Shown here piece after piece: positions 17,780-54,057 of a stretch of 64,000 bases of DNA. The position numbers were made by a program, and so were the translations under genes. Below the pieces are notes generated by a model that worked only from the letters and a program-made list of their open reading frames with translations, was not told the DNA's origin and searched no databases. The stretch spans positions 5,184,001 through 5,248,000 of the forward strand of contig CAWAIF010000003.1 in the NCBI GenBank assembly GCA_963782055.1, in the 5' to 3' direction. The stretch's first letter is position 1, and each line of letters opens with the position of its first letter. The DNA is from an uncultured delta proteobacterium (GTDB lineage: Bacteria; Myxococcota_A; Polyangia; Polyangiales; Polyangiaceae).

Positions 17780-17828
17780 GTAGGAAATCCTAGCGCGGTC
17801 GGGCGCGAAAGTTTACGAAATCCATCTT
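17779..17828 (+). repeat. 99-bp unit left half (copy 4, split by module 1)
   Basis: CGTAGGAAATCCTAGCGCGGTCGGGCGCGAAAGTTTACGAAATCCATCTT. Confidence 0.92.
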
Positions 17829-28565: not shown

Positions 28566-28650
28566 TCAGTGCGCGCCGACCAGCCGCACCAGCGTGCCCA
28601 TCACGTGCCGGAACCGCCCGCGCAGCACCTCGTCCAGCTCCGGCATGTAG
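28566..28650 (-). pseudogene. Orphan 3' gene tail (four-helix-bundle-like), cut at the repeat
   Basis: YMPELDEVLRGRFRHVMGTLVRLVGAH* begins at the repeat boundary. Confidence 0.4.
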
Positions 28651-28701
28651 CGCATAGGAACTGCTAGCGCGGTCGGGCGCGAAAGTTTACGAAATCCATC
28701 T
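28651..28701 (+). repeat. 99-bp unit left half (copy 5)
   Basis: CGCATAGGAACTGCTAGCGCGG..GAAATCCATCT followed directly by the intron. Confidence 0.92.
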
Positions 28702-28789
28702 ATCGGCATAGGGGCCCCGGGTTTCCCCGGGGACCCCTGCCACACCACCGGACAGGCGGGTCCGCATCCGGCGGTTCGGAGAGTTGAGG

Positions 28790-29249
28790 TCACGTGTCGA
28801 GCCGGGGAAGCCCCAGCTCGTCGAAGAGCTTGTTCGGCAGAGCCACGCTGAGGACGCGCATTCCCGAGGTTCGCCACCAGCGCGTCGTATTTGCTGCCGC
28901 GCGGCGAGCGTCGACGGGAGGGATCCCCCGTCGGCGCAGTTCTCGGAAGACGGTGACTCCTCGCACCCACTGCTTCAACTGCAGTGCGCGGAGTCGGTGC
29001 CGGATCCAAGAGTCCAGCTCGCGAAAGAGCGTGCGGAGCTCGACAAGCTGGAAGTAGTTCTTCCAGCCTGGCAAGTACCCTCGCAGATCTCGGCAGACCT
29101 GGGCCAGGCTCCGACCGCGCATGCGGCTCGTCATGTGCCGCACGCGGTCCTTCATCGTGTCGAGGGCCTTGCGCGCGATCGTGCAGCGGACCTCGTTCTT
29201 CGACGACAACCAAAAGGTGTAGCCGAGGAACTTCCGGTCTTGCACGGGT
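28790..29249 (-). pseudogene. ltrA: Intron RT/maturase, C-terminal part (RT7 and domain X)
   Basis: PVQDRKFLGYTF..GWKNYF..LDSWIRHRLR; in frame with the N-part after IS removal; no En domain. Confidence 0.9.
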
Positions 29250-29259
29250 GCCACCGCGC

Positions 29260-30704
29260 CATGCCCGATCTCTTAAGCACCGATCGCCCCAAGTTTGAGG
29301 GCGATTCGTTTCCTGGAGCGTGAAGGTTGTCGTTCGCGTGCCAGAGCGACGAGTGCCGCGCCCACGGTGGTCACGACGGCAGTCCACGCGGCGGTGCTCA
29401 GGGAGACGAGGGCGTCGACCAGGTCCCGCGCGTAGGCGCGCACGACGTGCAACGTCGCCAGGGGGCGCAGTTGCTCGAGAGGGACGTCGCGCGCGAGTGC
29501 AGCCTGGATCCTGACCGAGCGCACGAGCGCGTGGGCGAGCATCGCGCCGTAGGTGAGCGCCTTGATCGCGTGGGGATCGGCGGTGAAGGAGCGGCCGAGG
29601 TCGGCGGTCTGCTTCAGCTCGCGAAAGAGCAGCTCGATCAGCCAGCGGAGTCGGTAGGTCTGGATGATCTGCCGTGGCGAGAGCACGCTGCGCGGCACGG
29701 TGGTCAGGTACCAGCGGATGACGGTCGACTTGTGCGCGAGTCCCACGAGCCGCAATGCGACGGTGTCCTTGCCCTTGCCCCACGTCACGTCGAGGTCGAA
29801 GATCGTCCCGCGCTTGCGCGACACGCTCTGCAGGTAGTAGCCAAGCGACCAGTTGTGGAGCGGGGTGTGGCCGTTCTCCGAGATGTGCGCGGTCACGCGT
29901 ACCTTCGCCGTGGTCTTGAGGCGCATCAGCACGTGCGCGCCGGCAGCCTTCGCCTGGGTGAACAGAGCGCGCTCGAAAAAGCCGAGGTCGAAGAGGTAGA
30001 GCACCCCGCGCGTGAAGCTCGGGACCAGCTTCCGCCACAGCGGCGTCTCCGACGCGGTCTCCGCGTCGGAGACGCCGTGCTCGAGCAGGCCGGTCTTGAT
30101 GCTGTAGCCCATCACCCACTTGGTGCCGGCCTTGCCCTTGGTGCATCCCGGCAGCAGCTCGCGCCCGCGCGGTGGCACGCGCTGCCCCGTACCGTCGTAG
30201 ACCCGCACGTCCTCGAAGCGGGCGAGCGGCCCGCTCAGCTCCAGGCCCGCCGCCTTCGTCACCGACGCCACGAGGTGCTCGAGCGCCGCGCGGAAGAACG
30301 CCGCCGCCGACTCCTGCTTGAACCGCTTCTGGAACGGGCACGGGCGCATGAAGCCGAAGCGCCTCACGAAGATCGCCCGCAGCGACTCGAACGACAGCGT
30401 CTGGCCCGCGAGGAACCCCTCGACGACCGTGAGCACCAGGCGGAACGCGGTGGCGCGCCGCTGCCGCGGGTTGTAGCCGGTGCGGCCCCGAAGCTCGTCG
30501 ATGACCGCCGGCGTGAAGGTCCGCTGCAGCTGCTCCTCCACCGCGCTCGCCTCTTCGCTCGGGTCTGGACGGCTGCTCGTGGCTCGGGTAGCTCTCGTCG
30601 TCATCGGGCGTCCTCTCCTTGTTGGTGTCGCAACCGAACAACGAGAAAGGCGCCCGATTTATTTCCATCATTCCGCCACGTTATGTCCAAAGGATCTGGC
30701 CATG
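29260..30704 (-). mobile_element. IS4-family insertion sequence, 1445 bp
   Basis: 10-bp TSD GCCACCGCGC (29250-29259, 30705-30714); imperfect IRs CATGCCCGATCTCTT / CATGGCCAGATCCTT. Confidence 0.9.
29273..30604 (-). CDS. IS4-family DDE transposase
   Basis: VYDGT, LFDLGFF, YRLRWLIELLFRELKQ (YREK motif). Confidence 0.92.
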   Translation of the reverse strand: MTTRATRATSSRPDPSEEASAVEEQLQRTFTPAVIDELRGRTGYNPRQRRATAFRLVLTVVEGFLAGQTLSFESLRAIFVRRFGFMRPCPFQKRFKQESAAAFFRAALEHLVASVTKAAGLELSGPLARFEDVRVYDGTGQRVPPRGRELLPGCTKGKAGTKWVMGYSIKTGLLEHGVSDAETASETPLWRKLVPSFTRGVLYLFDLGFFERALFTQAKAAGAHVLMRLKTTAKVRVTAHISENGHTPLHNWSLGYYLQSVSRKRGTIFDLDVTWGKGKDTVALRLVGLAHKSTVIRWYLTTVPRSVLSPRQIIQTYRLRWLIELLFRELKQTADLGRSFTADPHAIKALTYGAMLAHALVRSVRIQAALARDVPLEQLRPLATLHVVRAYARDLVDALVSLSTAAWTAVVTTVGAALVALARERQPSRSRKRIALKLGAIGA

Positions 30705-31618
30705 GCCACCGCGCTCTTCGACTCGTTGATCTGGAGATGGAGCTTCGCGTAGAGACGCCGCAGCGCCTGCATGACCCGCTCGCCCGCTCGCCGTGACCGC
30801 ACGTAAACGTTGCTGTCATCGGCGTAGCGCACGAAGGCGTGTCCGCGCTTCTCCAGCTCCTTGTCGACTTCGTCGAGGAGCACGTTCGCAAGCATTGGCG
30901 AGAGAGGACCGCCCTGGGGCGTTCCCTCGTCGCGATCCATCACGACGCCGTTCGCCATGATGCCGGCGTTCAGGTAGCGACGGATGAGTCCCAGCACGCG
31001 CCGATCCTCGATTCGTTTGGCCAGTCTCCCCATGAGCACGTCGTGGTTGACGCGGTCGAAGAAAGCTTCGAGATCCACGTCGACCACCCATCGTCTTCCT
31101 TGCTGCACATACCGCTTCGCCTCGCGCACGGCGTCGTGCGCGCTGCGCCGCGGCCGGAAGCCGTGGCTGTGCTCCGAGAAGGTCGGATCGAATCGAGGCT
31201 GCAGGACCTGCAAGAGGGCCTGCTGGATGAGTCGGTCGAGCACCGTCGGGATGCCGAGCTGTCGCTCGCCGCCGCCGCTCTTCGGAATCACGTGCCGTCG
31301 CACCGGCTGCGGCTGGTACGTCCCCGCGAGCAGCTGCTCGCGGAGGGACGGCCAGTGCACGCGAAGGTGGTCCGGTAGCTCCTCCACCGTCATCCCGTCG
31401 ATGCCGGGACTGCCCTTGTTCCGCTTCACTCGCTTCAGCGCGGCCTGAAGGTTCTTGCGCGTGAGCGCCGCCTCCATCAGCCCGCTCGTTCCTGAGCGCT
31501 CGGTTCCATGGGTCGCCGAATCCGCTTCCACGCGTCGGTCGTCGCTCGGGGCTTCACCATCCGCGGCGGTCGGCGTCTCGCTCTTGGACTTCTGTGGCTG
31601 CGCGTTCTCGAGATCCAT
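30705..31618 (-). pseudogene. ltrA: Intron RT/maturase, N-terminal part (RT0-RT6)
   Basis: GSPGIDG, LGIPTVLDRLIQQA, GTPQGGPLSPMLAN, RYADD. Confidence 0.92.
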
Positions 31619-32226
31619 GGGCGTTTCGCCCTCCTCTCCGTTTGGCCCTTCGCAGCGATAGAGACTTCCGGGGTTCGGGGGGGGTCCCTGCCCGGCTCCT
31701 TCGCCGCTACTACGGCCTCTGCTGACTTCTCGCTCCGTCCGACGTTGTCGCCGGCCGTCGCCCTTTCAGGCGCGAGGCGAGATCTCCCCAGGTAAGAGCA
31801 TCAACCTTCACCGCACGACCGCCGGATATACGCCGCCGAGCTTCGGTCACGAGAGCTTCGCGGGTTCCAGTCCGCTCGCCCTGCTCGGCCACGCCTCCGA
31901 TCCGATTTCTGTACGTCGGCCCGCGGCTTCGCTCCCCACTTCCTCCAGACGGTCCCTCACGGTTCCGCCCTTGTGGTTCGCTTCTGTCATTGTGACCAAT
32001 TTCAGGAAGGACTTTCACCTCCGGGTTGATGCCCATGCTGGGCGCACTGGACGAAGCCGCTGCGCGGCAGCGTGGCTCCGCATCAAGCTCGCTCGCGACC
32101 CGGGAGCCCCGCGAGCCGTGTGCGCGCTGACGAGCCCGCCTCGTAGCCCTCGCGTGCCGTGATGCGGGCGATCCTGCGGCGCGCGCCGCCCGCTCGTGGG
32201 CGCGCGCGGAGCCGAAGGAGGCCGCG

Positions 32227-33072
32227 ATGGGTGCGAAGCGAAGACTGCGGGACACGATGAGCGAGGACCTCGCGCTGCGAGGGATGAGCGCCAACACGAT
32301 CGCCACGTACGTGGGGTGCGTGCGGCGGTTCGCGCAGTACCACGGGCGGTCGCCGTGCGCGCTGGGGGCGGCGGAGATCCGGACGTTCCTCTTGCACCTG
32401 GTGGCGGAGCGCAGGCTGGCGGCGCTGACGGTCAACGTGCACGCGGCCGCGCTGAGGTTTCTCTACGAGGTGACGCTGGAGCGGCCGGAGGCGACGCTGG
32501 GGATGGCGCGCATGCGGGTGCCGATGCACGTGCCGGTGGTGCTGACGAGCGCGGAGGTGGCGCGGCTGCTCGCGTCGCTCACGAGCCACAAGCACCGGGC
32601 CCTGGTGATGCTCGCCTACGGGGCGGGGCTGCGCGTGAGCGAGGTGTGCAAGCTCCGGGTGGACGACATCGATCCGAAGCGGATGCTCCTGCACGTGCGG
32701 CACACCAAGCGCGGGCGTGAGCGCTACGTGATGCTCAGCGCGAGGCTGCTGGCGACGCTGCGCGCGTACTGGAAGGCGTCACGACCCGCAGGACCGCAGC
32801 TGTTTCCGGGGCGCGTGCCCGGGACGCTCCTCACGCGCGCGGCCGTCCACCGGGCGATCCTCAAGGCGGCGCGGCGCGCGGGCATCACCCGGCGCGTGTC
32901 GCCGCACACGCTGCGCCACAGCTTCGCCACGCACCTGCTCGACGCAGGGACCGACCTTCGCACGTTGCAGGTCTTGCTCGGGCACGCGTCGCTCAGGAGC
33001 ACGATGGCCTACCTGCACGTGAGCACCGCCCGCGTGCAGTCGATTCAGAGCCCCCTCGACGCGCTGCCCTGA
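32227..33072 (+). CDS. Tyrosine recombinase/integrase
   Basis: Same 281-aa protein as 18007-18852. Confidence 0.95.
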   Translation: MGAKRRLRDTMSEDLALRGMSANTIATYVGCVRRFAQYHGRSPCALGAAEIRTFLLHLVAERRLAALTVNVHAAALRFLYEVTLERPEATLGMARMRVPMHVPVVLTSAEVARLLASLTSHKHRALVMLAYGAGLRVSEVCKLRVDDIDPKRMLLHVRHTKRGRERYVMLSARLLATLRAYWKASRPAGPQLFPGRVPGTLLTRAAVHRAILKAARRAGITRRVSPHTLRHSFATHLLDAGTDLRTLQVLLGHASLRSTMAYLHVSTARVQSIQSPLDALP

Positions 33073-33078
33073 GCCCCG

Positions 33079-34038
33079 ATGCACCCGTCGTGTGCGCCCG
33101 CGCGCACGCGCGCGGCGCCCATCGAGCTCGCGGACGTGGTGCGCGCCCACGGCGAGGCCTTCGCCGGCGGCCGCGTGCTGCGTCCCGAGGAGCGGTCGGC
33201 GCTGCGGGCGATCGAGCGATGCCGGACCGCCGCGCTGGGCGGACATCTGGACGTGTGCACCGCGTGCGGGCTCGAGCGACCGTCGTACAACTCGTGCCGC
33301 AACCGGCACTGTCCCAAGTGCCAGTCGCTCGCGCAGGCGCGGTGGGTCGCCACGCGGCTCGAGCGCATTCTGCCCGTGCACTACTTCCACGTCGTCTTCA
33401 CGCTCCCCGCCGAGCTGCGCGCCGTCGCGCGGCGCTCGCGCGCGCGGGTCTTCGACATGCTCTTCGCGAGCGCGGCCGACACGCTGGCCACCCTCGCGCG
33501 GGATCCGAAGTGGCTCGGCGCCGAGCTCGGCGTCACGATGGTCCTGCACACCTGGACGCGCGCGCTGCTCTTCCACCCCCACGTGCACGCCATCGTCACC
33601 GGCGGCGGACTCACCGGCGACGCCGCGCGCTGGGTGCGCGCGCGCCGTCGCTTCCTCTTCCCCGTGCGCGTGATGGGCGTCTCGATGGGCGAGCGCGGCG
33701 TCACCTTCCGCACCAGAGACGGCAAGTCGGTCACCGTCCCGGCCGAGGAGCTGCTCGCGCGCTTCGTCCAGCACGTGCTGCCGCGCGGCTTCGTCAAGAT
33801 CCGCCACTACGGCCTGCACTCCGCCAGCCACGCCACCACGCGCCTCGAGACCGCACGCCGCAGACTGGGTCCGCACGCGGCGCCCGCTGCGCGACCGGTG
33901 CGCCGTGCCGTCGCCGCCGACCTGCTGCTGCGAATCGCGGGCATCGACCTGCGCCGCTGCCCCGCTTGCCACACGCCTGCCCTCGTGCGCACCGCGCTGC
34001 CGGAGCCCCGAGCTCGCGACCCGCCGGGGGCCGCATGA
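33079..34038 (+). pseudogene. IS91-family transposase with the same 201-bp deletion
   Basis: VRVMG|VSMGERG junction, YLGRY missing. Confidence 0.9.
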
Positions 34039-34365
34039 TCTCCCCGCGTCGTGTTCCACTGCGCTCGCTCCACGAGTGCGGCGCAGGCCCCTGTCCATCC
34101 GCGCCACGAAAACCCGCCCTCCGAGCACGCACGGCTGCCCGCTGCGCGCTCCGGGACGCCCGCGTCGAGCGCCGTCCCGCCGCCCGCTCCGCACCTCGCG
34201 CACCCGCACGCGTGACCCACACGCCGCCAACTTCCCCATAGGGCTCCGAGGCCACCGCCTCGCCGCTGCCGCGCACCGGCTTCGTCCAACCGTCGATTTC
34301 GCGACCGCGCACCCGCGCCACGCGACCGCCGCCGCGACCCGGCGCGCTCACGCAATCGACTCTTA

Positions 34366-34415
34366 CTTATGCGAAGTGGGGCCGTCCGGTGTCACTGGAA
34401 GGACGGACCAGGGTG
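34366..34415 (+). repeat. 99-bp unit right half (copy 5)
   Basis: CTTATGCGAAGTGGGGCCGTCCGGTGTCACTGGAAGGACGGACCAGGGTG. Confidence 0.92.
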
Positions 34416-37391: not shown

Positions 37392-37443
37392 CGCATAGGA
37401 AATGCTAGCGCGGTCGGGCGCGAAAGTTTACGAAATCCATCTT
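37392..37443 (+). repeat. 99-bp unit left half (copy 6)
   Basis: CGCATAGGAAATGCTAGCG..CCATCTT. Confidence 0.92.
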
Positions 37444-37621
37444 GGACGAAGCCGCTGCGCGGCAGCGTGGCTCCGCATCAAGCTCGCTCGCGACCCGGGA
37501 GCCCCGCGAGCCGTGTGCGCGCTGACGAGCCCGCCTCGTAGCCCTCGCGTGCCGTGATGCGGGCGATCCTGCGGCGCGCGCCGCCCGCTCGTGGGCGCGC
37601 GCGGAGCCGAAGGAGGCCGCG

Positions 37622-46908: not shown

Positions 46909-48273
46909 TCACGCCCATAGACCCTCGAAGAGCTGATGTGCGTCGTCCCACGACGCCAATAGGTCGGCGACCTTGGGAGTCGTGAAGCGGTTGTGAACGT
47001 AGTCGTTGAGTAGCTCCGTGGAGAGGGGGCTGTGCGTAGTGCTCAAGGCTCGTTCGACGCTCCTGTAGTCCTTTCGGTTCTGGCCTTGAGCGACAAGATG
47101 TTCGATCACCTCACCGACCTTCGTTCTCAGATTCTTGTCTCTTTCGTGGCCCCCCTTGTCCTTGACCGTCAGCGGGACCTTCTGCTTCACCATGTAGTGG
47201 TCCACCGAGAGTTCCAGGAACACGCGGAACAGGACGGCGATGGCGTTCGGCGCGTCCGCAACCTTGAGCCTGCCAAGCTCCTCAAAGATAAGCGCAATCC
47301 TACGTTGGCTGATCGATAGCTCGACGCCCTTCGGTATCAAGGTCCGGCGCTCGGAGGGTTCGCGTTTGCGTTTGGGCTTGCTGCGCGACCTACTAGGCTC
47401 TTGTGGCTTGGCCTTGAAGTCGCCTTGGCCGATCTCCTCGATGGGCCGGACGGAGCCGGTCTTGGAGAGATCCGGGCGACTCGCCTTCGCGAAGTCCTTC
47501 TCGATGTACTCGACCTGCTGCGCTTTGTTCTTCAGCTGGCTGACGTTCTTCCGCCCCTCAGCGAGATCGAGAACCATTTGTCGCAGAGGTTTCATCAACT
47601 CCTCGGGAGGCAAGCCCGAGACAAGTTTGCCGTTCTTCACGTCGAACCCGAGGCGGCTTCGCACGTCGCGGCTGGAGAGGAGGCGGTCCAGCGTCGTGAT
47701 CGGGAACTGTTGCTCCAGGAGTTCCTTCTGCTGCTCGCTGAGAGCGCCGTGTGTGCTAACAAATGCGAGCGCCTGCAAGGCTGGGTCTTGCCCTCGGAAT
47801 CGAGATGCCGCAATGCCGGACCATCCAACGACGCCCTTCCCGCCGTTCTCGCCCGTGTGGCGCTGATGAATCCACTTCACGCCCTCGTCACGGTTTGCGA
47901 TCTCATAGCCCGCCAGTGGCTCCACCGTGCCACGGTCGAAGCGCTCAGCGAGCTTGTCGAAAGCCCGCCGCAGAGCCGTCGAGATCGGAACATCGTTGAG
48001 TACGCTGGGGGTAGCCAGGATCTTGAGCGCGACGAGTCGCCGGTTGCCCTCAAGAACGACGAACTCCTTTCCTTGCTTGAGCACCAAGAAACGGTCCATG
48101 GGGTTCATCCCCTCGTCCTCGATGATGCTTCGGGCAAGGACAAGGAGCTTCTCCTTCTGGTCCTCGACAATTTTCTGAAGCGCATCGCGCTGGTTCTTCG
48201 CACCCACGATGCGCGGGTTATCCAGATCCAACAACAGGTCGGCGATCTCAAGACTTACAGAACCCACCTTCAT
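46909..48273 (-). CDS. ParB/Srx-like N-terminal domain protein with possible HEPN-like C-terminus
   Basis: LLLDLDNPRI..VVLEGNRRLVALK; C-terminal AVLFRVFLELS..LNDYVHN. Confidence 0.6.
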   Translation of the reverse strand: MKVGSVSLEIADLLLDLDNPRIVGAKNQRDALQKIVEDQKEKLLVLARSIIEDEGMNPMDRFLVLKQGKEFVVLEGNRRLVALKILATPSVLNDVPISTALRRAFDKLAERFDRGTVEPLAGYEIANRDEGVKWIHQRHTGENGGKGVVGWSGIAASRFRGQDPALQALAFVSTHGALSEQQKELLEQQFPITTLDRLLSSRDVRSRLGFDVKNGKLVSGLPPEELMKPLRQMVLDLAEGRKNVSQLKNKAQQVEYIEKDFAKASRPDLSKTGSVRPIEEIGQGDFKAKPQEPSRSRSKPKRKREPSERRTLIPKGVELSISQRRIALIFEELGRLKVADAPNAIAVLFRVFLELSVDHYMVKQKVPLTVKDKGGHERDKNLRTKVGEVIEHLVAQGQNRKDYRSVERALSTTHSPLSTELLNDYVHNRFTTPKVADLLASWDDAHQLFEGLWA

Positions 48274-48412
48274 CTCCTCGGCAAACGGGGACGGAACGCT
48301 GCCCGACCCTCTACCAGCTGCAACCCTACCGCCGCAAAGGACGCCCATCTCGTGGACGCACGCGCGGTGGGGCCCACGGCCGCCCGCGCGAGTTCGATTC
48401 CCGTCGCCATGT

Positions 48413-50200
48413 CTACGCCACCAGCTCCTGGACGACGGCCTCGACGAGCTTGGCCGCTCGGCCCTCGGCTCGACGGAGCTTCACTTCGAGGTCGTCGCAG
48501 ACCTTCATGAGCTGCTCGACCTTGGCGACAATCCGACGCTGCTCGGCGACGGGCGGGAGCGGGAACGGCACGCGCCGGAGGTCCACAAGGTGGAGATGGG
48601 TGACCCCCACCCCCTTCTGGTTGTCCTTGCCGAATTGGCCGGAGGCCCCGAGGTAGGCGACGTGAGCGACGAAGCGTGGATGAACCGATGGAACGACCGG
48701 GACGAGCGCGACGCTCTCGAACAGGGTGAACTTCCGGTCGGTGTCCACGATCGCAACTTCGCCGATCGATCCGCTTTTCGTCACGAGTACGTCGCCACGC
48801 TTGGGGCAGCAGCGTCCTGCCAGCTCCTCGAACTCCTCGGCCGAAATGTACCTGCACCTGTCGAACACAAGCTTGCCGCCCTTGATGTCCTTGGCTGAGA
48901 TGAACGCGACCCCCTGTTCTTGGTACTTTGGCGTGTGGTGCGTGCCATCGACGATGTGCCCGGCCACATCCCCAAGTTGGCACCACATCCATCCTCGCGG
49001 GACCGAGTAGGGCGCGGAAGCGGGTTCCGCCACGGCGCCGCCGTGGCCACGGCCTCCCCGCCGCTTGCCCCCGAGGAGCGCCGCCCGTTCCTGATGGATG
49101 CGAGTCCACAGCTTCTCGACGGGCTCGTCGGACACCACCTGTGGTTCCAGCCAGCCTCGGACGGCACCTTCGAGGAGTGCCCTGCGCAGCACCCCAACCT
49201 TCTCCGCCCTGTCGATCAGCACATCGAAGTTCTCGACGACCCGCTTCCAGGCGGCGTCGAACTCCTTGGGCCCCTCGGCGGCCGTGAGGGCTTCGAGGGC
49301 CGACTTGGTGAGCCGGGTCCCAGTCTCCCGCTTCTTGGTCTGCCGGGCTTCCAGGTCGTCGCAGAGGGCCATGAGCTGGTCCACCTTGGCGACAATCCGC
49401 CGCTGGTCGGCGAGCGGTGGGAGAGCAATCGGAAGCATCTCGACGGTCTCGGAATCCAGGCGACACGTCCCGTGGGAGGAATGCTCCACCTTCGCAAGAA
49501 CTCGCGTTCGAGCCGCCTGGCAGCTCCGAAGAATGAACTCCGAAAGCTCCGGCATCGCCAGGACGAGGGCCTTCATGTCCTGGTTGATCGCCACCTCCCG
49601 CATGGTGACGGCGACCGGAAACGAGTGCGCGAGAATCATCCCTCTGACAACGCAGAGAACGCTCCGAGCTGGAATCAGCTTTGCAGCGGAGCCCTCCACT
49701 GCGGCCATCGAGATGTGGTCCTCAGCGTCCTCGATGTAGGGACGCTTCATGTCCTTGGGGGAAACCCACGGCAACGGTCCCGCCCAGAACGTCGCGTTCG
49801 ACTTCGAGGGCGTCCCACCGCCGAGAAACCCACCAAACTCACCGAGTCGAACCCACCGCCAACCGGGTGGCAGACGGTACGGAGCTTCATCGTCAGCAAC
49901 GGGAAGCGACACGTCCCCGATGCGAATCCCAGCCTTCGCGAGCTTGGCGCGGGCACGCTGCAACTCGGCGACCAGTGAGTCGGCCGTCTCGGCGGTCGGA
50001 CCGGACAATCGCCCCCTGACGGCAAGCTGGAGCACCAGCTCCTTCAAATGCTTGGTGCTCCCGGCGACGTTGACCAGCACCTCGAAGTTCTCGACGAACT
50101 TCTTCACATCGAATCCGCTGCCGACAATCTCCTCGACGCGAGCCGCGAGCTTCGGGGGCTTTGCGCCCGCCTTCTCGAACATGGGGGTCTGGACGGTCAT
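48413..50200 (-). CDS. hsdS: Type I R-M specificity subunit
   Basis: Two TRDs each bracketed by P.GW.W..LG and LPP.A(D/E)QRRIVAKV(D/E)QLM..CDDLE. Confidence 0.92.
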   Translation of the reverse strand: MTVQTPMFEKAGAKPPKLAARVEEIVGSGFDVKKFVENFEVLVNVAGSTKHLKELVLQLAVRGRLSGPTAETADSLVAELQRARAKLAKAGIRIGDVSLPVADDEAPYRLPPGWRWVRLGEFGGFLGGGTPSKSNATFWAGPLPWVSPKDMKRPYIEDAEDHISMAAVEGSAAKLIPARSVLCVVRGMILAHSFPVAVTMREVAINQDMKALVLAMPELSEFILRSCQAARTRVLAKVEHSSHGTCRLDSETVEMLPIALPPLADQRRIVAKVDQLMALCDDLEARQTKKRETGTRLTKSALEALTAAEGPKEFDAAWKRVVENFDVLIDRAEKVGVLRRALLEGAVRGWLEPQVVSDEPVEKLWTRIHQERAALLGGKRRGGRGHGGAVAEPASAPYSVPRGWMWCQLGDVAGHIVDGTHHTPKYQEQGVAFISAKDIKGGKLVFDRCRYISAEEFEELAGRCCPKRGDVLVTKSGSIGEVAIVDTDRKFTLFESVALVPVVPSVHPRFVAHVAYLGASGQFGKDNQKGVGVTHLHLVDLRRVPFPLPPVAEQRRIVAKVEQLMKVCDDLEVKLRRAEGRAAKLVEAVVQELVA

Positions 50201-51648
50201 CCCCTGGCTCCTTCGAGCGCGGCCTTCAGCTCGTCACGGAGCTGGTCGCGGATCTTCGCTGCCTCCAGGGCGGCCTGCCGGTACTGCTGGAGCAATTCGT
50301 CGGCGTCCCCGGGACCGTCATCGACGGCGCGCGGGTTCTTGATGTCGAGGTTGTAGCCGCGCGCCTTGATGTCCTCGATGGACACCTTCCACGCGTGGTC
50401 GTTCTCCTTGCGCTTGCTCCACCACTTCTTCTCGGGCTCGAACTCCTTGATCGTAAGGGGCTTGGTCTTCGAGTAGCTCTTCGCGCCCTCGGGGTAGGGG
50501 TGCTCGTAGAACCAGACGTTCTTGGTCGGCTCGCCCTTGGTGAAGAACAGCAGGTTCGTCTTGATGCTCGTGTAGGGCGCGAAGACGCCTTTCGGGAGTC
50601 GGACGATCGTGTGGAGGTTGCACTCGGCGAGGAGCGCTTCCTTGATGCGCGTCTTGATGCCCTCGCCGAAGAGCGTGCCATCGGGAAGGACGAGCGCCGC
50701 ACGGCCGCCGTTCTTGAGGAGCGTCATCAACAGGACGAGGAACAGGTCGGCCGTCTCCCGCGTCCGGTACTGCGTCGGGAAGTTCGTCTCAATCCCGTCC
50801 TCCTCCATTCCGCCGAACGGTGGGTTCGTGATGATCACGTCCACGCGGTCGGCGGGGCCGTAGTCACGCAAGGGGCGGGCGAGCGTGTTGTCGTGGCGGA
50901 TCTGCGACGGCACGTCGATGCCGTGGAACATCATGTTGGTCACGCAGAGGAGGTGAGGGAGCGGCTTCTTCTCCACGCCGTGGATGCTCGCCTGGAGCTT
51001 CTCCTCGCCCTTCGCGCTCTTCACGTAGCTTGCGCGGATGTGCTCGATCGCGCAGACGAGGAAGCCGCCAGTCCCGCACGCGGGGTCGAGGATCTTCTCC
51101 CCGAGCTGGGGATCGACCTGATCGACGATGAACTGGGTGACGGCTCGCGGCGTGTAGTACTCGCCCGCGTTCCCCGCGTTCTGAAGGTCACCGAGGAGCT
51201 TCTCGTAGATGTCGCCGAACTCGTGCCGGTCGGCCGCCTTGTTGAAGTCAACCTCGTTGAGCTTGTTGACGACCTGCCGGAGCAGGGTGCCCGACTTCAT
51301 GTACTGGTAGGCGTCCTCGAAGACACCGCGAACGACACCGGCAACGGGGGCGTTCTTGCCCGTGGTGGGCAGCTCCTTCAACTTGGGGAACAGCTCGTTG
51401 TTCACGAAGTTGAGCAACTCCTCGCCCGTGATGCCCTCGGGGTTCGCCGCCCACGCGCGCCACCGGAACTTGGACGGGATGGGCGACTTGTACCCGTCGT
51501 CCATCATCTCCTTCTCGGACTCGCGGTCGTCGAAGACCTTGAGGAAGATCATCCAGACGAGCTGACTGATGCGCTGGGCGTCCCCATCGACCCCCGAGTC
51601 CTTGCGCATGATGTCCTGGATGGTCTTGATGGTCGTGCCGATGGCCAT
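50197..51648 (-). CDS. hsdM: Type I R-M methyltransferase subunit
   Basis: GEYYTPR, DPACGTGGF, TNPPF. Confidence 0.95.
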   Translation of the reverse strand: MAIGTTIKTIQDIMRKDSGVDGDAQRISQLVWMIFLKVFDDRESEKEMMDDGYKSPIPSKFRWRAWAANPEGITGEELLNFVNNELFPKLKELPTTGKNAPVAGVVRGVFEDAYQYMKSGTLLRQVVNKLNEVDFNKAADRHEFGDIYEKLLGDLQNAGNAGEYYTPRAVTQFIVDQVDPQLGEKILDPACGTGGFLVCAIEHIRASYVKSAKGEEKLQASIHGVEKKPLPHLLCVTNMMFHGIDVPSQIRHDNTLARPLRDYGPADRVDVIITNPPFGGMEEDGIETNFPTQYRTRETADLFLVLLMTLLKNGGRAALVLPDGTLFGEGIKTRIKEALLAECNLHTIVRLPKGVFAPYTSIKTNLLFFTKGEPTKNVWFYEHPYPEGAKSYSKTKPLTIKEFEPEKKWWSKRKENDHAWKVSIEDIKARGYNLDIKNPRAVDDGPGDADELLQQYRQAALEAAKIRDQLRDELKAALEGARG

Positions 51649-51662
51649 GGCGTCGCTGTCCT

Positions 51663-54057
51663 TCAGGAGGCTCGGTAGATTTCGTCTTCAAGCGAGCGAA
51701 CGGCCGCAACGTAGGCGTCTTTGCCACCGAACGTCTTCACGATCTCGACCGGCGTGCCGAACGTCGTGAGCGGTTGGACCCTCAGCACGTTCATGTCCTC
51801 GATGTCGTCCACGCCTTCGTCGGCGTACTTCGCCAGCAGGGCTTCGAGGACGGCTCGTGCCTGCTCGCCGTACTTGGTGAAGTAGTCGCGCTTCTTGACG
51901 TTGTTCGCCCGCTCCTTGCGGGTGAGCGGCGGCTGCCCGAACGCAACGTGGCAGACGAGAATCGAAGGCGGAAAAGTCCTTCCCGACCTCCTCGGCGACC
52001 GCATCGAGCAGGAGGCCGTGCGTCTCAAGTTCCTCTACGACGGCCTGCTTTCGGTCGGCCGCCTTCCATCGCCGGAGAAAGGCATCGAGCGACGTGAACT
52101 CCTCGCACATGGCCTTCTTCACGTAGTCCCGAAGCGACTCGGTGACGAGCTTGCCGTCGCTGCCGTAGTACTGCACGCGCTCTTTGAGCACATAGACCGG
52201 AACGTCACCGACGACGTACTTCACCCGCTTGCCGCCCTTGTGCTCGTGGATGATGGTGTCGCCCGCATCGCCGCCTTCGTCGGGATCGATCTCGGGCGGG
52301 AAGCCGTCGTCCCTTGGCGGAGCTTCGGTACCCGTGTCGTCGTCCGGGGGAGCGGGGGGATCGTCGCCCTTGGGTTCGTAGACGCGGACGGGGAGGCCGT
52401 CGAAGTCGGGATCGGCGAACAGCTCGGTCGCCTTCTTGAAGTCGAGGATCGTGAAGTAGAGCTTCCCGTAGTCCTCGCGGATGCGCGTCCCTCGGCCGAT
52501 GATCTGCTTGAACTCGGAGAGCGACTTGATGGTCTGGTCGAGGACGACCACTTTGCACGTCTGCGCATCGACGCCCGTGCTCATCAACTTCGAGGTGGTG
52601 ACGACGACGGGGTACTTCTTCTCGGGGTCGATGAAGTTGTCCAGCTCCGCCTTCCCCTCGGCGTTGTCCCCCGTGATCTGCATCACGTAGCGACGGTCGG
52701 CGGCGCAGAGGTCGGCGTTCTCGTTGACGAGCAACTGCCGCATCTCGCTCGCGTGCTCCACGTCCTCGCAGAAGACGATGGTCTTCGCCATCCGGTCGGT
52801 GGCCTTGAGGAAGTCGCTCACCTTCTTGGCGACCAAGCCCCTGCGTTGCTCAAGGACCAGCTTTCGGTCGAAGTCCCCCTGGTTGTAGACGCAATCCTCA
52901 ATCTCTTCGCCGTGCTTGTCGAGCTTCCCCTTCGGCGGGCGCCACCCTTCGAGATCCTTGTCGAGGTCGAACCGCACGACCTTGTAGGGTGCGAGGAAGC
53001 CATCCTCGATCCCTTGCTTCAAGGAGTAGGTGTAGACCGGCTCGCCGAAGTAGTGCGTCGTCGAGATGTCGGTCGTCTCTTTGGGGGTCGCGGTCAGGCC
53101 GATCTGCGTGGCAGCCGAGAAGTAGTCGAGGATGTCGCGCCAAGCGGAGTTCTCGGCCGCGCTGCCCCGGTGGCACTCATCGACGATGATGAGGTCGAAG
53201 AAGTCGGGACTGAACTCCTTGAAGATGTCCTTCGTCTCGTCGGTGCCCGTGATCGCCTGGTAGAGCGCGAGGTAAATCTCGTACGACTTGTCTACCTTGC
53301 GGTTCGTGATCTTCGTCATCGCCTTGCCGAACGGCTTGAAGTCGTTCGTCTTGGTCTGATCGACGAGGATGTTGCGGTCCGCAAGGAAGAGGATCCGCTT
53401 CTTCGCCTTCGCCTTCCACAGGCGCCAGATGATCTGGAAGGCCGTGAACGTCTTTCCTGTCCCGGTCGCGAGGACGATGAGGATGCGGTTGTCGCCGCGT
53501 GCGATGGCCTCGATGGTCCGGTTGATGGCGTTGAGCTGGTAGTAGCGGGGCGGCTTGCTGGTGGCCTCGCTGTAGTAGTCTTGGGTGACCACGGGTTCGG
53601 CCTCCGCCGTGATCCCCTTCCACACGCAGTAGCGGCGCCACAGCTCGTCGGGAGACGGGAACTCGTCGAGCGTGAGGTTGCGCTCCATGGGCTTCGTGTT
53701 GCCCGTGCGGTCATGGACGACGAAGCCGTCGCCGTTCGAGGAGAAGACGAACGGGACGGCGAGCATCTCGGCGTATTCCAACGCCTGCTGCATCCCGTCT
53801 CCGACGCGGTGGTTGTTGTCCTTCGCCTCCATGACGGCGACCGGGAGCCCCGGCTTGAAGTAGAGGACGTAATCGGCCCGCTTCGACTTGCCCCGCGTGA
53901 TGAGCTTGCCCCGAACAATCACGCGACCGTTGGTGAAGGAGAGTTCCTCGCGCACTTGCACCTGAAGGTCCCAGCCCGCCTGCTCGATGGCGGGGTTGAT
54001 GAACTTCGTGCAGATGTCCCGCTCGCTCAGGGACTTCTTGTCGATGGAGTCGGCCAT
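51663..54057 (-). pseudogene. hsdR: Type I R-M restriction subunit (EcoAI-like) with +1 frameshift near 51960
   Basis: [29 protein letters not shown]-terminal [23 protein letters not shown] lies in another frame. Confidence 0.88.

Follow-up and report, generated by a model that had tools for sequence, protein, structure and literature searches.

The DNA examined here, referred to as the window, is a stretch of 64,000 nucleotides from an uncultured delta proteobacterium of the Polyangiaceae (contig CAWAIF010000003.1, positions 5,184,001 to 5,248,000). It carries a mobile element composed of genes for a 281-aa tyrosine recombinase (the integrase) and an IS91-type transposase (Zn_Tnp_IS91 and Y2_Tnp domains), and the left end of this element is occupied by a group II intron on the minus strand, opposite to the integrase (Table 1). 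This retro-intron belongs to class IIC, and its exon-binding loops match the left end of the element. We consider it probable that its three copies in the genome arose by separate reverse-splicing events into a conserved hairpin, and that this hairpin is a recurrent niche for such introns.

The intron and the element that carries it

The junctions fall at 28701/28702 and 32047/32048. Deleting 28702-32047 yields 17 letters identical to the intron-free left end at 37437-37453, and further intron-free left ends occur in the window at 17827 and 54387. A first-pass annotation of the sequence had described a IIC-like intron at 28695..32055 whose removal restores its target, which splits two T residues and which runs antisense to the integrase and transposase genes. 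All of this was borne out except the coordinates, which we correct to 28702-32047.

The intron starts with GUGCG and ends with AU, in agreement with the boundary pattern GUGYG...AY. Two Rfam domain I-IV models for group II introns (D1-D4) match it, its domain V (D5) is short with a CGC triad, and its domain VI (D6) is bulged. The CGC triad is a marker of class IIC. Assignment to this class is supported by the boundaries, the domain structure and the triad, as well as by the short pairing of exon-binding sites 1 and 3 (EBS1 and EBS3) with the exons, the stem-loop ahead of the insertion and the type of reverse transcriptase (RT). In a protein tree of 106 rows, which had no non-C outgroup, the window RT lies within the class C lineage and is nested among terminator-type introns. 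No endonuclease domain was found in the RT open reading frame (ORF).

The RT reading frame is interrupted by a DDE insertion sequence, which is flanked by a 10-bp target duplication (29250-29259 and 30705-30714) and is present in the genome in about a dozen near-identical copies. Because the RT is split, the window copy is predicted to be unable to move by itself. The genome (7.58 Mb, three contigs) holds three copies of the intron that are more than 99.6% alike, which implies recent intron activity. Copies 2 (that of the window) and 3 have no differences except insertion sequences, which sit at different offsets, the DDE insertion sequence (window 29260-30704; G000:C3:6187965-6191091) having struck the former once and the latter twice. 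A frameshift takes the place of an insertion sequence in copy 1, and none of the three copies has a whole RT as assembled. One sequencing run, which may be of the source sample, contains an RT allele that lacks the insertion sequence. A second RT element of ~2.04 kb, with an RT 42% identical and with unrelated flanks, is found in eight near-identical copies (near G000:C3 1993578, 2003332, 2764864, 3169971, 4456935, 5275382, 5380439 and 6985558), at least one of which adjoins the DDE insertion sequence.

Table 1. Positions of the intron, its parts and the host element within the window.
Feature	Position	Strand	Remarks
Class IIC group II intron	28702..32047	-	3346 nt; 1891 nt minus insertion sequence and its duplication
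D5 (CGC triad, IIC type) and D6	28702..28777	-
RT ORF, C-terminal part	28790..29254	-	GIIM maturase domain
DDE insertion sequence	29260..30704	-	1445 nt; DDE_Tnp_1, ORF 29273-30604; CATG ends
RT ORF, N-terminal part	30713..31618	-	RVT_1, YADD motif
EBS3 (U)	31828..31828	-	Pairs with first base of 3' exon, A, in 3/3 genomic copies
EBS1 (UGGA)	31866..31869	-	Domain I hairpin loop; pairs with TCCA of the 5' exon, 4/4
100-bp repeat, first half	28650..28701	+	XerD-arm-like 11-mer 28684-28694, 6-bp spacer 28695-28700; 3' exon of intron
Left inverted repeat	32048..32072	+	XerC-arm-like end and GCCGC/GCGGC hairpin 32056-32068; 5' exon of intron on minus strand
Tyrosine recombinase	32227..33072	+	281 aa; under integron-integrase cut-off; without model positions 180-238
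IS91-type Y2 transposase gene	33079..34241	+	Internal 201-nt deletion and frameshift
Right inverted repeat (weaker hairpin) and right-end extension	34264..34366	+	No intron
100-bp repeat, second half	34367..34415	+	Opens with XerC-arm-like sequence of dif mimic

The genome contains 14 left ends of the host element and 12 of its right repeats. The element starts at TT, on the border between XerC arm and spacer of a 100-bp repeat whose core (11-6-11) resembles the chromosomal dif site; the latter is located at C3:3558763, at the switch in orientation of KOPS (FtsK-orienting polar sequences). An 11-6-11 layout of dif is given in passages of PMC5357621. The first T of the element, position 28701, is at the end of the first half of the 100-bp repeat. 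Comparison of filled and empty junctions suggests that the recombinase exchanges strands at the arm/spacer border, before TT. The base ahead of TT is a C at the window element; genomic copy 3 has a G there, a genome from a different genus within the family (G035) has an A, and all four bases occur among further elements. The description of the target as a precise CTT crossover core was too narrow because of this variation: the TT is indeed split, but TT alone is constant, giving a core of N^TT at the dif mimic, and the intron sits one base within the arm of the element rather than at the presumed exchange point.

A reading of the site as an integron attC was also rejected, as no integron integrase (IntI) above the cut-off is present in the genome and the repeat core matches the dif of the chromosome. 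The same pair of integrase and IS91 transposase genes is annotated in RefSeq in rhizobial plasmids. Host elements of this kind presumably go under names such as ISAzo26 and y4qK/y4qJ; a literature search for them gave no paper. Elsewhere in the window, a type I restriction-modification operon (46909-54057) is flanked by two copies of the 100-bp repeat, and at G000:C3:4433279-4433479 two such repeats stand in direct tandem with nothing in between.

Recognition of the site and the three genomic copies

On the intron strand, a GCCGC-GCA-GCGGC hairpin ends 8 nt ahead of the insertion, as the first-pass annotation had noted, and DNA folding favours a longer, bulged stem of 11-12 bp that ends 4 nt ahead. 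Passages of PMC1702495 describe class IIC recognition as depending on a stem-loop 3-11 nt upstream and 3-4 bp of intron-binding site 1 (IBS1), and the window site fits both the distance range and the IBS1 length. Passages of PMC8643678 ascribe EBS2a to IIB introns only. An EBS1 complementary to the exon end ..GTCCA had been anticipated, and UGGA, which forms 4/4 pairs with TCCA, was found. The position of EBS1 was taken from an alignment of domain I, in which it makes 224 Watson-Crick pairs with the exon ends of relatives compared with a shuffle mean of 116 and maximum of 144 (72 relatives, 2000 shuffles); because these relatives are kin, this is a check of location and not a probability. The relatives come from the 80 best RT matches in 6/64 parts of a genome collection, eight being left out because their 5' exon was absent or too short. 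EBS1 is highly variable, with 34 different versions among the 72; UGGA is unique among them, and an EBS3 of U is shared by two. The 5-bp hairpin of the left end is conserved in 32 ends matched among 36 loci, with compensatory pairs in five, although the search pattern itself demanded the stem.

Each of the three genomic copies has the left repeat of an element as its 5' exon and an A first in its 3' exon, so that the site reads TCCA/A (the slash marks the insertion). Right ends are unoccupied (0/12), though TCCA/A is the same there; the right stem is weaker. The three host ends belong to three sublineages of the element, each with intron-free sisters. The window element differs from its closest intron-free sister by one substitution and one 7-nt indel, the copy 3 element is one substitution away from a different intron-free sister, and the window and copy 3 elements, or their sisters, are apart by five substitutions and a 201-nt deletion. 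The end at copy 1 is a third variant, and no intron-bearing element in the genome has an intron-bearing twin. We regard three separate insertions into the left-end hairpin as likely. The contrary view, that one insertion spread through movement of an intron-bearing element or through recombination between copies, appears very improbable to us given the different sublineages, in which each host end is closer to an intron-free sister, and the different offsets of the insertion sequences. It would nevertheless accommodate the identity of copies 2 and 3 apart from those sequences and the hybrid exons of copy 1 described below, and the 3' exon would, as observed, differ beyond its first base if an exchange ahead of TT had moved the intron.

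There are 3656 TCCA/A sites in the genome, and 102 of those behind a stem of at least 6 bp are empty, ten of them at element ends. If all 105 TCCA/A sites with such a stem are taken as equal, the location of 3/3 copies at element ends has p = 0.0015. Two of the three copies have the orientation of the replication fork, whose course was deduced from the position of dif (C3:3558763) and from the KOPS switch; this number is too small to inform, and GC skew by itself gave too weak a signal. At G000:C3:2271300-2274381, copy 1 is preceded by a single-gene IS91-type transposase fragment and 86 nt of inverted left end and is followed by a right-end extension, giving the locus the appearance of an inverted or hybrid element remnant.

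Introns at element ends in other genomes

Introns were also found at the same hairpin outside this genome. One metagenome contig has a 132-nt piece of the window intron, 97.7% identical, joined to the left end of a divergent element at the same base. A second contig, 337 nt long, retains EBS1 and EBS3 despite 11 substitutions and extends 6 nt into the same exon, but is too short to count. A full intron of 1865 nt, 72% identical, occupies the same base of the element in G035, where the element integrase is 59% identical to that of the window. This intron branches away from the window intron with a support of 98 in a DNA tree, which was used here because frameshifts inflate its branch in the protein tree. 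Six other matches to the end motif in G035 are chance.

A third group was reached from two matches among the 80 relatives, via a junction search of plasmids and annotations. It includes introns on rhizobial plasmids of Bradyrhizobium, Mesorhizobium and Sinorhizobium fredii that lie directly upstream of integrase genes and antisense to them, an IS91 transposase following the integrase in 4/5 cases. When five plasmids were searched with the intron only, 15 matches were obtained, one of which was unrelated and one without a 5' end. Twelve of the 13 readable copies lie 120-190 nt ahead of an integrase in antisense orientation, and the remaining one stands behind an element-type hairpin. Five of the 13 had served to select the plasmids; when these are excluded, 7/8 qualify, one being in a duplicate region. 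Insertion in 11 of the 12 is after TTG, 2 nt from the register of the window intron, with an EBS3 of G. In an Acidobacteriaceae genome, where 18 of 20 matches were examined and 16 were readable, four of the eight copies of one intron type lie ahead of an integrase and three more behind element-type hairpins. In this rhizobial and acidobacterial clade, insertion typically follows the third base of the element (TTG/NAC) and EBS3 G matches the C of CAA, whereas the insertion point of the window intron is behind the first base and its EBS3 is U. The window intron is not a member of this clade, from which it is separated by a DNA identity of 57-60% and a separate branch in both RT and DNA trees. 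Two specialist subclades each received a bootstrap of 100 in a DNA tree of 52 rows.

Identical intron-free sister elements are present on two of the five rhizobial plasmids, and B. barranii has three intron-filled elements 99.96-100% alike, which fit either repeated homing or movement of the element with its intron. Judged by the right ends of loci L381, L384, L385 and L387, the rhizobial elements are laid out like the window element: they have an arm ending in CAA and an inner inverted pair, and ~75-80 nt beyond lies a final TT. These elements integrate at varied sites ending in GA.

Several observations weigh against the reading of element ends as a niche to which these introns are fitted. 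Its nearest RT relatives, at 70-81% identity, are terminator-type, 59/72 relatives have T-rich tails (at least four T in the last eight bases), and an integrase or IS91 gene lies within a flank of up to 4 kb in only 2/80, the other 78 having none. The p value rises to about 0.06 when the comparison is made with the 18 stem-preceded TCCA/A sites outside crudely called genes. Within the order, none of 23 additional introns, one of them from the unpublished genome G747, is at an element end, and none of 31 other elements carries an intron; no other result draws on G747 or on G1002. The G035 intron (L224, G035:C19) has a matching EBS3 U and an EBS1, AAAU, that cannot pair with TCCA; assembly chimera, conversion and pairing-free insertion are candidate explanations. 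A related intron with an EBS1 of UGGU sits at an ordinary hairpin ending in GCCA. Only one of eight copies of the second Acidobacteriaceae intron type is antisense ahead of an integrase, the two specialist subclades are united with a bootstrap of 79, and the exons of copy 1 in the present genome come from a left end (5') and a right end (3'), a combination that requires inversion or recombination and shows that rearrangement has also occurred.

The low occupancy (0/31 elements), the weak contrast with intergenic alternatives (p about 0.06), the variability of EBS1 and the terminator-type relatives would all fit plain opportunism, in which an ordinary hairpin-seeking IIC intron enters element ends as the commonest harmless sites that fit, with no lasting niche. 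We think this unlikely, since a near-identical fragment occurs at a divergent element in another sample and a multi-genus clade has 12/13 plasmid copies at such ends, with EBS3 G matching the C of CAA. The first-pass annotation had suggested that the intron may specialize on this type of site, and had held that related introns placed after ordinary terminators, with no link to integrase-IS91 modules, would refute this. For the nearest relatives, such placement is largely what the tabulated flanks gave, and the window intron's own specialization is accordingly shallow. The suggestion is sustained by the three genomic copies, the 97.7% fragment and the other lineages at the same hairpin. The window intron points to a recurrent niche.

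Viral contigs gave no matches; in a metagenome pattern scan (25/64 parts), one of 120 loci was an intron and the others were chance matches. No new element-end case was among the matches listed from a scan of the phylum, whose pattern was loose and was matched about as often by controls. In a sample of Alphaproteobacteria, 5/351 genomes matched, and the three new ones with a readable 5' end are not at element ends. No read-derived contig had at least 31 letters on both sides of a junction.

State of the target, effect on the element and known systems

The ribonucleoprotein of the intron may read the local stem-loop and TCCA/A on integrated element DNA that is transiently single-stranded, as IIC introns do at terminators. 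As EBS1 changes freely, a lineage can gain a niche by drift, and such drift could fit it to a repeated, non-coding and conserved end, which would act as a renewable safe niche. The window intron would then be a young case and the rhizobial and acidobacterial clade an older one.

The intron had been put forward as independent evidence that the site is exposed as folded single-stranded DNA. This is unsupported: all IIC introns need a hairpin, and this intron uses one that is local to the left end. The joined ends of the element do fold into a long hairpin, but TCCA/A is paired in this predicted fold-back (unpaired probability 0.00-0.03). Predictions for the integrated element likewise have the target mostly paired (0.07-0.74 unpaired), and folding is thus a weak guide. 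Given the pairing of TCCA/A in the joined-end fold, and with host flank as the 3' exon of copies 2 and 3, the intron most likely struck an integrated end via the local hairpin.

Copying of IS91 elements is expected to displace the antisense strand and to finish at the left end. The target could instead be this displaced strand, or the folded attachment site of an excised circle, and the antisense orientation of all cases, their position at the left end and the long hairpin of joined ends are as expected from such a target. Only 2/3 copies are co-oriented with the replication fork, which is also in its favour. We judge this improbable. In addition to the pairing of TCCA/A in the fold-back, an intron at a circle junction would spoil the integration site, and the 3' exons are host flank in 2/3 copies. 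Moreover, hairpin strength alone accounts for the left bias: in 6/6 intron-free elements the left end folds better (-6.3 to -9.9 kcal/mol) than the right end (-2.1 to -6.9 kcal/mol), a result that explains the bias without rolling-circle exposure and remains compatible with it.

Insertion splits the terminal recombination arm of the element, placing 1.9-3.3 kb between its first T and the rest of the arm, so that recombination or termination at an intron-filled end would be likely to fail. A block of excision of the element, as the first-pass annotation had supposed, is plausible, and this copy of the element already has the 201-nt transposase deletion. Such blocking is reported for RmInt1 in passages of PMC5894124. 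The element end is likely to be an overlooked landing niche in which introns would disable their host element. A bolder version, which we hold to be as doubtful as plain opportunism, posits an unnamed guild of IIC introns, parallel to those of attC sites (IIC-attC), that arose at least three times and preys on IS91-recombinase elements through the strand displaced by the transposase. By destroying the stop and recombination signal, the intron would either freeze the element or permit read-through that drags flanking DNA along, and the metagenome contig in which an element end and 132 nt of intron run into unrelated DNA would be a read-through product. If this were true, the introns would be natural reporters of where these elements become single-stranded.

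The window intron resembles terminator-targeting IIC introns (B.h.I1, O.i.I1 and the class C intron of Sinorhizobium meliloti) in its GUGCG start, CGC triad, RT and maturase without endonuclease, 4-nt EBS1, EBS3 and stem-loop 3-11 nt before the insertion, as these are described in passages of PMC1702495. Its RT is 74% identical over the aligned part to that of the S. meliloti pSymB intron. Unlike introns of this type, its exon ends in TCCA and not in a T tail, its hairpin is a transposon end, and it lies upstream of and antisense to the adjacent genes. With IIC-attC introns (S.ma.I2 type) it shares the splitting of TT in a tyrosine-recombinase site and the antisense orientation to neighbouring genes (PMC3001079 and PMC7923331). 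The same sources give TTGT/T, EBS1 ACAA and the GTT strand for IIC-attC, whereas the window intron reads TCCA/A on the AA strand. The five references of integron or cassette type group together by themselves (support 0.98), and each of the four that are readable combines an EBS1 of ACAA with a TTGT exon. The window RT was placed in a separate clade at 48-57% identity, and membership of IIC-attC was rejected on these grounds and because the target is no attC.

RmInt1 in ISRm2011-2 and E.c.I4 in IS3-family transposases are likewise introns in repeated insertion sequences for which blocking of spread is reported (passages of PMC5894124 and PMC3522654). They differ in occupying transposase coding sequence and using long pairings, whereas the window intron is of class IIC and occupies a non-coding end hairpin. 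The host element itself is like IS91-family elements with an upstream tyrosine recombinase; in this genome it joins a dif mimic where the XerC arm meets the spacer.

In the literature consulted, the IIC targets named are terminators, attC sites, phage attachment sites and 'other inverted repeats'. Our search of the literature, which extended to neither the intron database nor supplements that possibly list such sites, gave no paper on IIC introns in the ends of IS91-recombinase elements. A transposon-end hairpin used by several lineages, one of them in at least four genera, would be a third named niche of class IIC. The locus also presents parasitism in three tiers, with an insertion sequence in an intron in an element in a dif mimic. 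Natural EBS1 and EBS3 variants in two registers at one conserved hairpin offer a test of recognition by stem-loop and base pairing, and identical filled and empty elements on the same rhizobial plasmids offer a test of which end bases IS91-recombinase elements need.

A related intron at L100 (G029:C350, 77-1939) has a 15-nt 3' exon, reaching the contig end, whose last part resembles the outer end of the 100-bp repeat, and it may lie near an IS91-type origin end. At L078 (2826-2860) a near-perfect palindrome forms the 3' exon, and a truncated IS91 transposase lies behind it. L235 (NC_007950.1, 3625-7300) holds two IIC introns in direct tandem directly after a TnpB gene, the 5' exon of the second being the D6 end of the first, with a matching EBS1.

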